Shown: positions 3,201-56,348 of the stretch, in pieces | Layout: every line of letters starts with the position of its first letter | Position numbering within the stretch: position 1 is the first letter of the stretch | Assembly: GCA_014860625.1 (NCBI GenBank) | Contig: JACZJJ010000088.1 | Span: 12,468-76,467, forward strand | DNA from: Bacteroidales bacterium | Lineage (GTDB): Bacteria > Bacteroidota > Bacteroidia > Bacteroidales > FEN-979 | Length of the DNA stretch: 64,000 nucleotides | Direction of reading: 5' to 3' | Translations under genes and position numbers: made by a program | The notes under the pieces: generated by a model | Told to the model about the DNA's origin: nothing | What the model saw: only the letters and a program-made list of their open reading frames with translations | The model's database searches: none

Positions 3201-4343
3201 TCAGTTGGCTGTTCCAAACTTGTACACCGTAATTTCATTGTACACGTCTCCCGGCTTCAGAATGGTATTCGGGAAGGTGGAGTGGTTCGGTGAATCGGGG
3301 AAATGCTGTGTCTCCAGGCACAATCCGGAGTGTTGTCCGTAAGCCTTTCCGCCTTTCCCTTTGATGGATCCGTCGAGGAAGTTTCCGGAATAGAACTGAA
3401 TACCGGGCTGGGTTGTATAAATCTTCACCTCACGACCACTTTTGGGATCCAACAGGGTCGCTGCCAGGGACAGATCGCCGGGGGTTTTGTCCAGCACATA
3501 GTTGTGGTCGTATCCACCTTTTACATCCCCAATCCGGGAACCGATCTCATGCGGTGTGTTGAAATCCATCGGCGTACCTGCCAATGGTGGCAAGGTACCT
3601 GTGGGGATCGACTCCCCGTCTACATCAGTCAGTTGGGCAGCTACAATGGATAAAATGTGGCCAAGCACGTTGGTATCTGCCGTTGAGAGGTTGAAATAGG
3701 TGTGGTTGCAGAGGTTTACCGGACACGGTTGATCCGTGGTAGACGTGATAACAGTTTGAAGTTCATCGTTATCGGAGAGGGCGTAGGTGACTTTCGTATT
3801 CAGTGTCCCGGGGTATCCCTCTTCTCCATCCTGACTCGTATAGGTCAGTTCAAGTCCTACAGATGTTGAATCCTGAACCTCACGGGCATCCCACACCACT
3901 TTGTCAAATCCCTTATCTCCTCCGTGAAGGTGATTGTTCCCGTTGTTTGTAGCAAGTTGATAGGATTTCCCATCTAACTTAAACTGCCCTTTTGCAATCC
4001 GGTTTGCATACCTGCCAACAATAGCGCCGAAATAGGGGTTATTTTCGACATATGACTTCAGGCTGTCATATCCAAGGACAATATCTCCCGGAGTTCCATT
4101 CCGGTCAGGAGTCCAGATTTGTGTGATGATGCCACCATAATTGGTGATCTTTATAACAATCCCGTTTTTATTGGTCAGGGTATAAAGGAAGACCTCCTGA
4201 TTGTCAATTGTTCCGAAAGGTTCTTTCATAATGGAGAGTGTTGAATTGTCTGCAGATTTGTCCCGGTTGCCGGAATTCTGACAGGCCGACATCAGTCCGG
4301 TTGCAAGAATGAACAGCAGAAGCAGTTGGATACAACGTTTCAT
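3201..4343 (-). CDS. galM: aldose 1-epimerase (galactose mutarotase), lipoprotein-type signal
   Basis: 380 aa with N-terminal LMSAC lipobox and NNGNNHLHGG / HTYFNL mutarotase motifs. Convergent with galK. Confidence 0.9.
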   Translation of the reverse strand: MKRCIQLLLLFILATGLMSACQNSGNRDKSADNSTLSIMKEPFGTIDNQEVFLYTLTNKNGIVIKITNYGGIITQIWTPDRNGTPGDIVLGYDSLKSYVENNPYFGAIVGRYANRIAKGQFKLDGKSYQLATNNGNNHLHGGDKGFDKVVWDAREVQDSTSVGLELTYTSQDGEEGYPGTLNTKVTYALSDNDELQTVITSTTDQPCPVNLCNHTYFNLSTADTNVLGHILSIVAAQLTDVDGESIPTGTLPPLAGTPMDFNTPHEIGSRIGDVKGGYDHNYVLDKTPGDLSLAATLLDPKSGREVKIYTTQPGIQFYSGNFLDGSIKGKGGKAYGQHSGLCLETQHFPDSPNHSTFPNTILKPGDVYNEITVYKFGTAN

Positions 4344-53042: not shown

Positions 53043-53185
53043 CCAGGTTATCAACACCTTTTCAACACCATGATTTTTCGATAATTCTAAAACGCTTATA
53101 TTCCGCACCTTATTGGGTAGTGAGTTATTAACATTTTGTTAATAACTCATGTTTATAGCATGTGAATACAAATCCTTCAAAAAAA

Positions 53186-53217
53186 TTGACATCCGGGTTC
53201 TGCATAGTGTATATTTG
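53186..53217 (+). promoter_or_regulatory. Bacteroidota-type promoter (-33 TTG at 53186, -7 TAtaTTTG at 53210-53217) driving the ncRNA candidate
   Basis: Exact TAnnTTTG with a TTG 21 nt upstream. No ORF follows. Confidence 0.5.
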
Positions 53218-53223
53218 ATATTA

Positions 53224-53579
53224 CAAGTGAGGGATAAAAGGCCCTTTGAGAAGTTGGGGATGTGAAAGCGGGATCCGCAAGGTGACAGCACTCCTGAACC
53301 AAGCCTGCGCAATTGCGAATCCGCAAGACTCGCTCGGGTAACAGGTTTCATAATCAAGGCGCTTCCGATACCGACTGACGCAAGGAAGGAGGAGCGGTGA
53401 GCGGGATGGAAGGAAGGGGAAGCCCGGAGAGCCAGCAGCCACAATAACCGTAACTTGACACGCCAGGCGGCCACGGTCGCAAGGATGTTGGATGGGAACT
53501 CTGTCGGCCAGATAGGGTTCCCATTACGGTTTTATAGGGTATATAAAAAAAGGGGTGATCTTTCAATCATCCCTTTTTT
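53224..53579 (+). ncRNA. candidate structured ncRNA of unrecognised class (~355 nt)
   Basis: GC-rich island between convergent genes: 57-58% G+C in two 60-nt lines I counted, against 33% in the upstream flank. It contains only overlapping compositionally odd ORFs. It has a promoter box upstream and a terminator at its 3' end, four CGCAAG (C-GCAA-G tetraloop) motifs, and several hand-verified helices (see findings). Confidence 0.55.
53545..53579. terminator. bidirectional intrinsic terminator (A-run / 9-bp stem / T-run)
   Basis: Stem aggggtgat/atcatccct (53551-53559 / 53566-53574, one G-U pair), 6-nt loop, flanked by A6-7 and T6. It serves the + strand RNA and the minus-strand lipoprotein gene ending at 53596. 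Confidence 0.7.
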
Positions 53580-53595
53580 GTTTAGAGAAAGTTTG

Positions 53596-54510
53596 TTATT
53601 GCTGAACCTTAACAGAAATGTCGACGGTTCCATCCTCTTCCTGGAAAATATTGTTGACTCTGATCAGTCCTTTCTTGCCGTTGACAGTAACAAAAGCAAT
53701 AAAATAGCCAGGCTTCAGATCTCCGGCCATTGGATCTGTAGCACCTTGAGTCAGGTTGATTAGCTCAGTATCATCCTGGATGGCATCCCAGTCAATGGCA
53801 TCCATAATAATTCTGAACCTGGTTGAATTTCTTACACTCCAATTCACCAATGCGTTCGGGCCGGGCGTTGAAACTGTCCCACCATCTGTGAATACGGTAG
53901 CGGCATCGGCATCATCAGGGGAGGCTATGGTTGCCAGATTCGTTGAGCCGTAATAATATAGCCAGTCAATCATGGCTGCATTAATTTTAGCATTGGCGAG
54001 GTTGTATATTTCACCATTCGACGACGCAAATGAACTGCCAATAATGTTTATCTGAGCTCCGAGAATGCGCTGATTATACGTAAAAATCGGGCCCACCATC
54101 GTTTCAGTTGTGATGTTGAAACTGCTAACCAGGGTGTTGCCGTCGCTCTGAGTGATTGTAAATATCCAGTTCTCAACACCTGCCTCATGAAGTGAGATTC
54201 CGTAGAAAATATAGTTTAATGCTGTAAGATTCAAGGTTGTATCAAAAATATCGTCCGGTTTCTCGTTGTATATACGCGTTACCTTCAGATTGGAAAGTGT
54301 GAAGCCGGTTGCTGCAGTAGCATTGAACCCAACTTTAAATTGTTCACCGGTTGTCAGGGTAACATCTCCCGAAGTATACCCCGCAGCAGCAATCAGAGAA
54401 AATGCAAATTCTTTTTGGTCAGGAGGATTCGTATCATCCTTTTTGCATCCGGAAAATATAGATGCGACAATGAGTATGCAGGCAATAGAAAAATAAGTAA
54501 GTTTTTTCAT
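53596..54510 (-). CDS. surface lipoprotein (hypothetical)
   Basis: 304 aa from ATG 54510 (MKKLTYFSIACILIVASIFSGC lipobox). Beta-rich and T/N/S-rich. No family recognised. Confidence 0.6.
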   Translation of the reverse strand: MKKLTYFSIACILIVASIFSGCKKDDTNPPDQKEFAFSLIAAAGYTSGDVTLTTGEQFKVGFNATAATGFTLSNLKVTRIYNEKPDDIFDTTLNLTALNYIFYGISLHEAGVENWIFTITQSDGNTLVSSFNITTETMVGPIFTYNQRILGAQINIIGSSFASSNGEIYNLANAKINAAMIDWLYYYGSTNLATIASPDDADAATVFTDGGTVSTPGPNALVNWSVRNSTRFRIIMDAIDWDAIQDDTELINLTQGATDPMAGDLKPGYFIAFVTVNGKKGLIRVNNIFQEEDGTVDISVKVQQ

Positions 54511-54600
54511 AGTATACGTGTTTGAATATGATTCTGTACAATTGGTGTCCAAAATTACGAATAAATACAGGCTTTATTGTTGCGACCCTGATTTTTTCTA

Positions 54601-55356
54601 CTAGAGGATGAAAGGGATCAACGCTTTCCTGTTGGCCGGATAGTCAGGAAATGTGGATTTATACCACAGGTGATGATGCAGTGCTCTTGGCAGGAGATTA
54701 ACCATTGTCCAAATCGCAAAAGCAAGTGCAGGGGTGCACCATGTCATCATGGCAAATCCAAACCACTCGATGATCTCGCTAAAATGGTTGGGACAGGAGA
54801 TGTATTTGAACAATCCTTTTTGCGGAATCACGTAGCCTGTCTGACCAGGTTTTCTCAGATGGATGAGGATGTTATCAGACTGCCAGTTGATGGCCATTCC
54901 ACCCAAAAACATGCAAATGCCGATGATGAAGCGGGGATCTGAGAGCCAGGAGATCGGGTAGGAGGCAAGAGAGCCCAGGTAATAACCATTGATAAACCCA
55001 TTGACAAAGTTGAATCCCAATGCCATAAAAACAATGGCAAGAGGCATTTTTTTTCCCTTGGTCCGTAGTCTGAATGGAAATATAATCGTTCTGTTGATAT
55101 AATGAAACATCCACAATCCGAAGAATATCCATGTAACCAGATTATGCTTAGCCGAACCAAACAGGAAAAGTCCTGCAAAAAGAAGCAGGGCAGGAGACTC
55201 CATGATAATCCATCCTAGCCGGTTGTAGATAAGTACTCCCCACTGTTTCGTTGTATGTCGACCGTAAGGTGCCGTAATTCGCAGGACGAAGGGAAAAATC
55301 ACCAATGCAATGCCAATCCATACGTATACAATGAAATAAAAAGTTGAGTTACTCAT
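54601..55356 (-). CDS. 3-oxo-5-alpha-steroid 4-dehydrogenase (steroid 5-alpha-reductase, SRD5A) family membrane protein
   Basis: 251 aa with about 6-7 TM helices. APYGRH is near the N-terminus. The C-terminal LRKPGQTGYVIPQKGLFKYIS..N.FSEIIEWFGFAMMTW..PALAFAIW...LLPRALHHHLWYKSTFPDYPANRKALIPFIL parallels human SRD5A2 (from memory). Confidence 0.85.
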   Translation of the reverse strand: MSNSTFYFIVYVWIGIALVIFPFVLRITAPYGRHTTKQWGVLIYNRLGWIIMESPALLLFAGLFLFGSAKHNLVTWIFFGLWMFHYINRTIIFPFRLRTKGKKMPLAIVFMALGFNFVNGFINGYYLGSLASYPISWLSDPRFIIGICMFLGGMAINWQSDNILIHLRKPGQTGYVIPQKGLFKYISCPNHFSEIIEWFGFAMMTWCTPALAFAIWTMVNLLPRALHHHLWYKSTFPDYPANRKALIPFIL

Positions 55357-55367
55357 GAATTATCAGT

Positions 55368-56348
55368 TTAATGAATGTAGCCGTGCTTCGTAAACCAGGA
55401 GAATGTATCTCTGACAGTCTCCTCCAGGTCCCTTGATGAAAAATTCAGCTCCCTTTGAGCTTTGGCATTGGAGATCATACGGCTTCCTTCAGAGATGATC
55501 TGGAGGGATTCTTTTGTATATAACGGCTCAACTCCGGCAATAAGACTGTAAAGGGTAATAAATGGAAGACCCAGTTTTGCCACCCACATGGGCATCACGG
55601 TCTGGGGAGTTTTTGAACCGGTAACTCTGGCAACGATCTGAGAAAGTTCCAGCAAACTATGCCAGGTGCCTGATAAGAGGTACTTCTCGCCTGATCTGCC
55701 CATCGTCATGGCATGGATAGCGCCCTGAACAACGTCCCTCACATCTACCCAATTGTATCCACCCGGGACAAGAGCGGGAATCTGGTTGTAGTAAAGTTCA
55801 AGAAGCGCTTTTCCGATCAAACCTGGCTCGGGGTCGTCGGGACCGATAATCGCTGTTGGGCAGAGGATTACGGCATCGAGCCCTTCAGCAGCAGCCTGAT
55901 GAACCGCTCGTTCTCCTTCAGCTTTTGACACATCATACGCAAAACCAACGGAGCCTACCACTGGACGCGTTTCGTCAAGAACTTCATTTGCAGGGTGTTG
56001 CTGGAATGCGTGAATGCTGCTAAAATGGATTAACCGATTAATCTTTTGTTCACGGGCTATCTCAACGATATTTTTTGTTCCCTCAGCGTTGATCTTCCAT
56101 ACCATGCCGTCGGGATCGCCTTTTATGGAGATAAAGGCTGCAAGATGAAAACAATAATCCGTATCCTGCATCAACTTCCTGATCGAATCCTTCTCAAGGA
56201 TATTCCCTTTGACTATTTCAATGGGGAGATCCTGGATTGCTTTGGTATGTTTGTGCGTAAGGGCCTTAACCTGATAACCTTCCTGAAGAAGGGCTTTGCA
56301 AAGATTTGAGCCAACATGGCCGTTAGCTCCGGTTACAGCTATTTTCAT
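55368..56348 (-). CDS. extended SDR, NAD(P)-dependent epimerase/dehydratase / 3beta-hydroxysteroid-dehydrogenase-like
   Basis: 326 aa with MKIAVTGANGHVGSNL Rossmann motif and YDVSKAEGE catalytic Y-x3-K. It ends 11 nt upstream of the SRD5A-like gene. Confidence 0.8.
   Translation of the reverse strand: MKIAVTGANGHVGSNLCKALLQEGYQVKALTHKHTKAIQDLPIEIVKGNILEKDSIRKLMQDTDYCFHLAAFISIKGDPDGMVWKINAEGTKNIVEIAREQKINRLIHFSSIHAFQQHPANEVLDETRPVVGSVGFAYDVSKAEGERAVHQAAAEGLDAVILCPTAIIGPDDPEPGLIGKALLELYYNQIPALVPGGYNWVDVRDVVQGAIHAMTMGRSGEKYLLSGTWHSLLELSQIVARVTGSKTPQTVMPMWVAKLGLPFITLYSLIAGVEPLYTKESLQIISEGSRMISNAKAQRELNFSSRDLEETVRDTFSWFTKHGYIH

Follow-up and report, generated by a model that had tools for sequence, protein, structure and literature searches.

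What does a GC-rich block encode when it lies between two convergent genes and holds no credible open reading frame (ORF)? This question is raised by a 64,000-nucleotide stretch from a Bacteroidales bacterium (contig JACZJJ010000088.1; the whole stretch is referred to below as the window), where the stop codon of clpS (53042; Pfam ClpS) and that of a convergent lipoprotein gene devoid of any Pfam domain (53596) delimit a 553-bp gap. A first inspection of the letters, hereafter called the sequence-only reading, had noticed the block in a gap of about 550 bp and had proposed an orphan structured RNA of ~355 nt. The G+C content is indeed 0.56–0.61 across 53250–53499, versus 0.31–0.34 in the flanks. 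The comparative analysis reported here indicates that positions 53223–53533 of the plus strand very probably form a single-copy, non-coding structured RNA gene, which belongs to a family so far undescribed.

53223..53533, plus strand: RNA gene, ~311 nt; 5′ end placed by the distance to the promoter and by the covarying outermost pair of P1, 3′ end by the U-tract

These conserved ends give a length of ~310 nt instead of ~355 nt.

A Family of Homologues in Uncultured Bacteroidota

Homologues were collected from contigs encoding lipoprotein homologues and by two exact-pattern scans, with confirmation by nhmmer. After removal of duplicates, 25 distinct homologues were obtained beside the window copy, all of them from uncultured Bacteroidota and 234–529 nt long, with compensatory changes in helices proposed by the sequence-only reading. 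The pattern scan of species-representative genomes retrieved eight Bacteroidota metagenome-assembled genomes (MAGs; Bacteroidales, Prolixibacteraceae and unclassified) together with four chance matches, and the looser scan of metagenome contigs gave 22 loci, 21 of which were confirmed by nhmmer. The RNA is also carried by a more distant syntenic locus, L026 (loci are given L numbers where they have to be told apart). The carriers come from habitats such as anaerobic digesters, activated sludge, stratified lakes and the Black Sea. The covariance model built for the family, R1, detects a single copy per source in all 26 sources, scoring 54–108 bits. The DNA of the syntenic gaps is 71–78% identical where the lipoprotein is only 56–74% identical. 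The RNA region is therefore at least as conserved as the adjacent protein, and its conservation is far above that of its flanks. A phage or mobile origin was also considered and rejected, as the RNA has no match among IMG/VR viral contigs and is found as one copy per locus.

Covariation and the Pseudoknotted Core

The consensus structure was derived with RNAalifold from 8 and then from 17 sequences, and the same architecture was obtained both times. It comprises the following elements, all on the plus strand.

53223..53228, plus strand: 5′ strand of helix P1, aCAAGU (RNAalifold; minimum free energy folds of L005 and L039; pair counts)
53229..53239, plus strand: J1/2, an unpaired and conserved 11-nt strand, GAGgGAUAAAA (GAGnGAUAAAA in the family; alignment A7)
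53240..53243, plus strand: 5′ strand of helix P2, GGCC (pair 21–34 is GC in 14 cases, GU in 4 and AU in 3)
53244..53436, plus strand: variable domain within P2, made of GNRA-capped hairpins and of varying length
53257–53300, plus strand: variable-domain hairpin with a GCAA tip (53277–80)
53303–53346, plus strand: variable-domain hairpin, whose inner hairpin (53314–53334) covaries and carries a GCAA tip (53323)
53375–53388, plus strand: variable-domain hairpin with a GCAA tip (53380)
53416–53425, plus strand: variable-domain hairpin GGG-GAAG-CCC
53437..53440, plus strand: 3′ strand of P2, AGCC
53441..53445, plus strand: strand joining P2 to the tail helix, ACAAU (AYAAU in the family; alignments A4 and A7)
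53446..53451, plus strand: 5′ strand of the tail helix (Pk), AACCGU, with invariant AAC, pairing with the 3′ tail (53526–31)
53453..53458, plus strand: 3′ strand of P1, ACUUGa
53461..53487, plus strand: H5, an irregular hairpin with invariant GGCyACGG, an upper stem 53467–71/53476–80 and the loop CACG (UACG in distant members)
53491..53525, plus strand: H6, a 15-bp hairpin (53491–53505/53511–53525) with a (near-)invariant base GGGAA/UUCCC, which forms an intrinsic terminator with the U-tract
53526..53533, plus strand: 3′ tail, ACGGUU (3′ strand of Pk) followed by UU, with the U-tract at 53530–53533

Compensatory changes in this fold exceed the levels seen in the controls. For the 3′ domain, with 26 sequences placed on model R1, 92.6% of the cells are paired, against at most 48.5% once the pairing partners are slid, and 15 of the 30 pairs have changed on both sides. 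The corresponding covariation score is 0.349, versus 0.09 at most in the controls, and none of 500 shuffles attains the observed values. Over the full length (17 sequences), 94.1% of the cells are paired (≤49.5% slid), with 21 of 57 pairs changed on both sides. P1 and P2 taken together (24 sequences) provide a weaker test, with 84% paired (≤48% slid) and 3 of 10 pairs changed on both sides. H6 is 97.4% paired, and 9 of its 15 pairs have changed on both sides. In the tail helix, the covarying pair is C-G in 16 sequences, A-U in 4, G-U in 1 and U-G in 1, and is unpaired in 3. Since G-U pairs are frequent and would read A·C on the opposite strand, the RNA can be assigned to the plus strand. Single-sequence folding agrees with the consensus: the minimum free energy (MFE) folds of the shortest member (L005, 234 nt) and of one of the longest (L039, 528 nt) recover P1, P2, H5 and H6; their z-scores are −3.1 and −6.1, respectively. 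For the RNA locus of the window, the fold z-score relative to shuffles is −2.6 on the plus strand and −1.5 on the minus strand.

P1 and the tail helix interleave, and the core is therefore a pseudoknot in which both ends of the RNA are buried. The GAG and AUA of J1/2 are invariant in 24 of 24 sequences, and L009 lengthens P2 to GGGCC/GGCCC. The tail of distant members reads UUUUGUUUU, and the conserved G within this U-tract lies opposite the invariant C of AAC, which lends the tail helix further support. Position 53223 enters the transcript model through P1, because the base preceding CAAG covaries with the base following the distal CUUG, so that the transcript should include that base and start at ~53223. 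This outermost pair is C-G in 6, U-A in 4, G-U in 2 and U-G in 1 of the 24 sequences.

Several parts of this architecture had already been drawn by hand. The hairpin 53494–53505/53511–53522 is real and extends to the 15 bp of H6. Six pairs of the proposed 8-bp helix 53446–53453/53524–53531 are conserved, one of them covarying (53446–51/53526–31), whereas the last two compete with the base of H6 and with P1. The three-way junction that this helix was thought to close needs revision, since one of its hairpins had been mis-assigned: the GCAA-capped hairpin 53471–53491 finds no support, and H5, with its stem 53467–71/53476–80 and loop CACG, takes its place. With P1, which had escaped notice just as the larger family and the repeat module conserved upstream had, this 3′ junction becomes a pseudoknot. 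Three of the four CGCAAG motifs read as GNRA tips (53276, 53322 and 53379) do cap covarying hairpins; the fourth (53478) belongs to the 3′ strand of H5. The proposed 7-bp helix 53301–53307/53342–53348 retains three pairs (53303–05/53344–46) and the hairpin that it encloses (53314–53334) covaries, but its other pairs are not part of the consensus.

The variable domain accounts for the large differences in size. A GNRA-capped hairpin located ~55–65 nt from the 5′ end recurs family-wide. The 234-nt RNA (L005:4971-5204; identical in L006, L012 and L044) has no equivalent of window positions 53364–53442, and L008 (L008:4973-5256) lacks ~32 nt of the same segment. This natural deletion in L005 means that 53364–53442, which consists of two small hairpins and a purine-rich stretch, is dispensable. 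At the other extreme, L032, L042, L039 and L036 contain 100–200 extra nt folded as many short, often GNRA-capped hairpins, and the domain reaches ~400 nt in L039, L036 and L042.

A mutual-information scan for additional tertiary pairs was dominated by phylogeny and left one weak hint, between 53232, the variable base of J1/2, and 53527. These positions are GC in 12 cases, AU in 4, CG in 2, UA in 1 and GU in 1, with 3 mismatches, a count which hinges on how the short tails are aligned and is confounded by phylogeny. They could form an alternative or tertiary pair.

Promoter, Terminator, and Upstream Repeat Array

The gene is preceded by its own predicted promoter, conserved both in sequence and in its spacing to the 5′ end of the RNA.

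53186..53191, plus strand: −33 promoter element TTGACA, with an A-tract just before it (53179–53185); the promoter matches the consensus at 11 of 12 positions
53210..53217, plus strand: −7 promoter element TAtaTTTG, of the Bacteroidota TAnnTTTG type, at a constant 6 nt ahead of the conserved CAAG

The Bacteroidota promoter that the sequence-only reading had placed at 53186 and 53210–53217 is thus present, and it is near-invariant in 23 homologous loci. Its layout in the window (TTGACA, 18 nt, TAtaTTTG, 6 nt, CAAG) corresponds to a fixed family layout of TTGAC, N18–19, TAnnTTTG, N6 and CAAG. Most loci have TTGAC and TAnnTTTG, and the farthest members have TTTGC/TTTGT or TAATTTTA. TTGAC is invariant in the close-clade alignment A1 and at least 80% conserved family-wide; the sequence of the spacer between the −33 and −7 elements is not conserved.

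At the 3′ end, the hairpin 53491–53525 followed by (A)CGGUUUU is kept in every family member. H6 is conserved and covaries in 26 sequences, and together with the U-tract it is the sole terminator-like site reported by a terminator scan, which provides the RNA gene with an intrinsic terminator of its own. The convergent gene stops within a few nt of the U-tract in L004, L005, L009 and L010. The terminator had initially been located further downstream, at a hairpin that does not belong to the conserved gene, whose 3′ end is formed by H6 and the U-tract 53530–53533.

53545..53579, strand not assigned: hairpin without conservation, with an A-run on one side and a T-run on the other; bidirectional terminator, mainly for the convergent lipoprotein gene

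The bidirectional assignment follows from the position of this hairpin between the two runs. It has no counterpart in L004, L005, L009 and L010, and in L001, L007 and L008 its place is taken by hairpins that are not homologous to it. It could serve the RNA as a back-up terminator.

Upstream of the promoter lies an array of repeats.

53046..53069, strand not assigned: block directly after the clpS stop codon, GGTTATcAACAnnTTTTCAACA, resembling a palindrome half-site; close clade only, with invariant columns in A1
53125..53145, strand not assigned: palindrome TTATTAACAtTTTGTTAATAA, a putative transcription-factor site, ~55 bp upstream of the −33 element
53150..53172, plus strand: two more direct TGT(T/G)AAT-like repeats with a 12–13 bp period and conserved TGT blocks, running on from the right arm of the palindrome

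The palindrome at 53125–53145 is the sole match in the 64-kb window, where none is expected by chance, and its consensus TTATnAACAA(n)TTGTTnATAA is found upstream of the RNA in every locus with 5′ flank. All these loci keep the same order at constant distances: palindrome, two direct repeats, A-tract and promoter. Lineages differ in whether the palindrome has a central spacer of 4 or of 5 nt; such a difference would be unusual if a rigid dimer bound there. Partial palindrome matches occur at the position of the post-clpS block in L001, L013 and L019. Judged from its sequence and layout, the array looks like a set of binding sites for an activator.

The half-site orientation does not seem to fit the consensus of Rex, Zur/Fur, KdgR or the Cheo-box. 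An SOS-regulated RNA was considered because of the DNA-repair neighbours in L030, L042 and L036/L039 described below. Published LexA boxes of Bacteroidota read GGA-N5-TCC or CTAA-N5-TTAG (PMC8565304). The palindrome, TTATTAAC-N4/5-GTTAATAA, corresponds to neither of them, and membership of a non-canonical LexA regulon was rejected. The palindrome is also absent from the dinB/lexA-like intergenic region of L030.

Coding Potential and Known RNA Classes

The initial impression that the block contains no credible ORF is borne out. Runs of insertions or deletions in pairwise comparisons are not multiples of three in 77 of 78 cases, the variability shows no 3-nt periodicity and no reading frame is consistently open across the homologues. 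The ORFs overlapping the block have no Pfam match, those of the minus strand are not conserved either, and the homologous regions encode no conserved protein. Public gene calls of 43–47 aa are present on the RNA strand within the RNA in two loci (L007:5090-5221 and L010:5085-5228), are not conserved elsewhere and are almost certainly false positives.

Known RNA classes were searched with the 4227 models of Rfam 15, at gathering thresholds and in sensitive E-value scans. At gathering thresholds, no match was obtained in the 64-kb window or in 11 homologous loci. The sensitive scan of 53050–53650 and of the L039 RNA, the most divergent of the family, gave only weak matches, the best with 21.7 bits against thresholds of 38–60, and the sub-threshold matches of the window lie mostly on terminator hairpins. 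The failure to recognise a class by eye is thus matched by a negative Rfam scan at both settings, for the window as for distant homologues. In particular, the 6S, 6S-Flavo, Bacteroidales-1, RNase P, SRP and tmRNA models have no match at E ≤ 10 on 53050–53650 (600 nt), and ARAGORN detects neither a tRNA nor a tmRNA across the 64 kb of the window. No match to the 6S models, nor to OLE, ROOL, GOLLD or raiA, is found in the window, in the 11 homologous loci or in the L039 RNA. An apparent resemblance of GGGAUAAAAGgCCC to a segment of the ykkC (guanidine-I) riboswitch was also followed up and discarded, since this segment is not kept in the homologues and Rfam is negative. Searches of openly available full texts, recent genome-wide surveys of non-coding RNAs among them, yielded no account of the RNA. 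On these grounds, the family is rated new.

Its general organisation does recall several known systems. Like OLE, ROOL, GOLLD and raiA, the RNA is encoded by a gene that stands alone and has a promoter and a terminator to itself; it is GC-richer than its surroundings and several hundred nt long, with many GNRA-capped hairpins, a conserved core and a variable periphery. Its occurrence, like theirs, is limited to certain lineages, many of them from anoxic habitats, and its neighbours give no clue to function. It differs from them by the lack of Rfam homology, by its smaller size (234–529 nt), by its occurrence in Bacteroidota instead of Bacillota/Actinomycetota and by a core which is a terminal pseudoknot using both RNA ends. 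It also has no associated protein genes, unlike OLE with oapA/B/C. The architecture, taken alone, is comparable to that of RNase P RNA, with a P1 formed by the two ends, a pseudoknotted core and lineage-variable peripheral helices with GNRA loops, but there is no model match, no universal conserved region of RNase P is visible and only few lineages carry the RNA. Pseudoknotted riboswitch aptamers followed by a terminator share with it a compact pseudoknot, invariant A-rich joining strands and a terminator hairpin included in the conserved fold. In contrast to these aptamers, the RNA mostly has no same-strand gene downstream, is several times larger and has a dedicated promoter with an operator-like array.

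Genomic Context

In the close clade, the gene order is NUDIX / clpS / RNA gap / lipoprotein / SRD5A / 3-beta-HSD, with OsmC also upstream alongside NUDIX and ClpS, so that the synteny around clpS, the RNA, the lipoprotein and SRD5A is conserved within this clade. The lipoprotein gene is missing in L013, L016, L017 and L049, where the RNA faces an SRD5A-like gene. A sister clade (L050–L052; ClpS 62% identical, clpS at 3501-3773) has OsmC-NUDIX-clpS with nfeD-floA-relA starting 9 nt after clpS and contains no RNA, and lipoprotein homologues in L023–25 lie in another context, again devoid of the RNA. An obligate tie to clpS or to the lipoprotein is thereby refuted.

The distant members have neither clpS upstream nor any neighbour gene in common, the surroundings of L030, L036/L039, L042, L045 and L046 being all different. 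In L030 (1-3562), a gene judged DinB-like from its N-terminal sequence alone, an HTH-S24 LexA-like repressor and SRAP lie directly upstream of the RNA, and a gene for a beta-lactamase-family protein follows on the same strand. L036 (5316-8555) and L039 (1998-5216) have DUF3857/3858 upstream and a 1079-aa UvrD-type helicase downstream on the same strand. L042 (8091-10455) combines a divergent upstream MsrB, a convergent carboxyltransferase and SRAP at 1.8 kb, and in L045 the convergent protein has a T9SS sorting domain.

The RNA is thus tied to no particular protein gene, which favours action in trans over cis-regulation. The earlier view that it is no leader or riboswitch also stands, since the downstream gene is convergent in the window; this holds likewise for the close clade, L042, L045 and L046. 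Where a gene does follow on the same strand, the followers are unrelated, so that the RNA does not form the 5′ untranslated region of a functionally consistent gene.

Some features of the neighbourhood deserve mention in their own right. Genes related to DNA damage or stress recur near the RNA, an unexplained tendency for which the independent contexts are too few to assess significance. The N-terminus of the UvrD-type helicase of L036/L039 begins MPFIADLHIHSHFS and looks PHP-like, with no Pfam match. On the far side of the gap, a gene cluster (window 53596–56348, minus strand; also in L001–L010 and L026) encodes the lipoprotein (without a Pfam match and with just 37 relatives in the database), an SRD5A-type steroid 5-alpha-reductase family protein, a 3-beta-HSD / NAD-epimerase and a domainless protein of 380–390 aa, to which relatives add a 66-aa ORF and a GyrI-like / polyketide-cyclase protein. 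The cluster may represent a pathway for lipid or steroid-like modification. Cluster and RNA together mark a junction specific to this lineage.

Possible Functions and Alternative Explanations

The explanation that we favour is that of an independent non-coding RNA gene of a new family, which would act in trans and whose core would dock a protein or a ligand; a probability of roughly 0.6 is attributed to it as a whole. With both ends buried in helices and a near-consensus promoter, the RNA would be stable and abundant, and action in trans is the most likely mode. The invariant elements cluster at one pseudoknotted junction, which gathers J1/2, AAUAAC, the GGCUACGG hairpin and the GGGAA/UUCCC base of H6. 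As the rest is free to vary, this distribution suggests a binding or active site carried by a scaffold. The junction would then be the docking site of a protein partner or small ligand and the variable hairpin domain its scaffold, and a factor binding the array of TGTTAAT repeats and palindrome, ~45 to 100 bp upstream of the start, would control expression. Taken by itself, the assignment of the core as a protein- or ligand-binding platform stays tentative. A bolder version, which we hold as doubtful, would make it a new large class whose invariant pseudoknotted four-helix core (P1, tail helix, H5 and H6, plus J1/2) performs a sophisticated biochemical task of its own, as a ribozyme, a ligand sensor or the RNA component of a ribonucleoprotein not yet recognised, and is switched on by a dedicated transcription factor reading the array. 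A role in stress may be hinted at by the neighbours, namely SRAP, LexA-like and DinB in L030, SRAP and MsrB in L042, the UvrD-type helicase in L036/L039, and OsmC, NUDIX and ClpS in the close clade.

Several points weigh against this explanation. Expression, RNA ends and abundance are all deduced from sequence, and the carriers are exclusively MAGs or metagenome contigs. The four core pairs of P1 are invariant, hence uninformative, and its outermost pair is mismatched (A.A or G.A) in 11 of 24 sequences, among them the window copy and the majority of close-clade members. The tail helix depends mainly on one covarying position and fails in L031, L042 (U.U) and L045. The full-length structure was derived from the same 17 sequences on which its pairing was counted, and alignment A6 was itself obtained by fitting to the model; both circumstances inflate the pairing values, and about 15 close-clade sequences are, moreover, not independent. 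As for function, a platform acting in trans for a protein or ligand is a tentative proposal, and no protein gene co-occurs with the RNA among the neighbour genes of the homologous loci.

The last observation would suit a self-sufficient, ornate RNA, either a ribozyme or a homo-oligomer held together by its GNRA tetraloops, like those of ROOL, GOLLD and OLE, which would need no protein partner. A conserved core with a variable periphery is also seen in large ribozymes, GNRA-capped hairpins occupy homologous positions family-wide, the pseudoknotted junction exposes invariant unpaired purines, and large bacterial RNAs have reportedly been documented as homo-oligomeric assemblies. On the other hand, no family member contains the 11-nt tetraloop receptor (CCUAAG/UAUGG), and the H6 loop GGCC, which might have provided a kissing contact, is not conserved. 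The hairpin-rich segment 53364–53442 can be dispensed with in L005, the size of 234–529 nt is below that of ROOL or GOLLD, and the context suggests neither substrate nor cleavage site. This alternative is considered unlikely.

A base-pairing regulatory RNA, in which J1/2 (GAGnGAUAAAA) or AAUAAC would be the seed for messenger RNAs and the remainder a stabilising scaffold, has a rather low probability too. It would account for the 11–12 nt of (near-)invariant unpaired sequence, for a gene with its own predicted promoter and terminator acting in trans, and for an operator-like upstream array, which suggests conditional expression. Yet such an elaborate conserved structure of 310–529 nt far exceeds the typical size of seed-type small RNAs, and the tail helix occupies part of the supposedly unpaired 3′ strand. 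Nor does the 64-kb window show an enrichment of sequences complementary to J1/2 (9 found for 6.2 expected), the only perfect one being the RNA gene itself.

It is improbable that a very divergent housekeeping RNA has escaped Rfam, the most plausible candidate being a 6S- or Ms1-like RNA that binds RNA polymerase. RNAs of the 6S type are poorly conserved in sequence, and the present RNA shares with 6S, 6S-Flavo and Ms1 an independent and probably abundant expression from a near-consensus promoter, 5′/3′ pairing and a large conserved loop beyond the closing helix, here an internal loop of 11 x 12 nt between P1 and P2. However, a 6S RNA is a rod of ~180 nt with a closing stem, a large central bubble and a terminal stem, whereas the fold of this RNA, in the consensus and by MFE alike, is multi-branched and adds two 3′ hairpins and the tail pseudoknot. 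Housekeeping models find no match even at E ≤ 10 on 53050–53650, nor in distant members, and the patchy distribution, with no RNA after clpS in the sister clade, is unlike that of a universal housekeeping RNA.

A cis-acting element, be it a long 3′ untranslated region of clpS, a leader or riboswitch, or an elaborate terminator of convergent genes, is very improbable. In the close clade, the RNA does lie directly downstream of clpS on the same strand, H6 comes within a few nt of the convergent stop codon in L005 and L010, and a same-strand gene follows in L036/L039 and L030. Against this, clpS and the RNA are separated by a near-invariant promoter at constant spacing from the 5′ end, clpS is missing upstream of the distant members, most contexts listed above have a convergent gene on the downstream side, and ~300 nt of covarying structure far exceed what a terminator needs. 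Finally, a protein-coding region (one of the P/S/R/G-rich ORFs of the minus strand, or a small ORF of the plus strand) or a chance GC-rich patch can be dismissed in spite of the 70–111 aa minus-strand ORFs overlapping the block and the small ORFs called in L007 and L010, given the indel pattern, the lack of codon periodicity, of a shared open frame and of any Pfam match, the compensatory nature of helix substitutions, G-U pairs fitting the plus strand only, and a conservation far above that of the flanks.

Significance

Large bacterial non-coding RNAs with a conserved pseudoknotted core are rare, the known ones being RNase P, tmRNA, group I/II introns, OLE, ROOL, GOLLD and raiA, and they have mostly proved to be catalysts or parts of unusual machines. 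Few large classes have been described in Bacteroidota. The value of the present family is limited for now, its carriers being uncultured, its known distribution narrow and the RNA tied to no process. A model of this RNA would already spare annotation pipelines spurious ORF calls such as those in L007 and L010. The family also offers a secondary-structure model, a promoter/operator module, and natural versions of the RNA ranging from a minimal one of 234 nt to an expanded one of ~525 nt.

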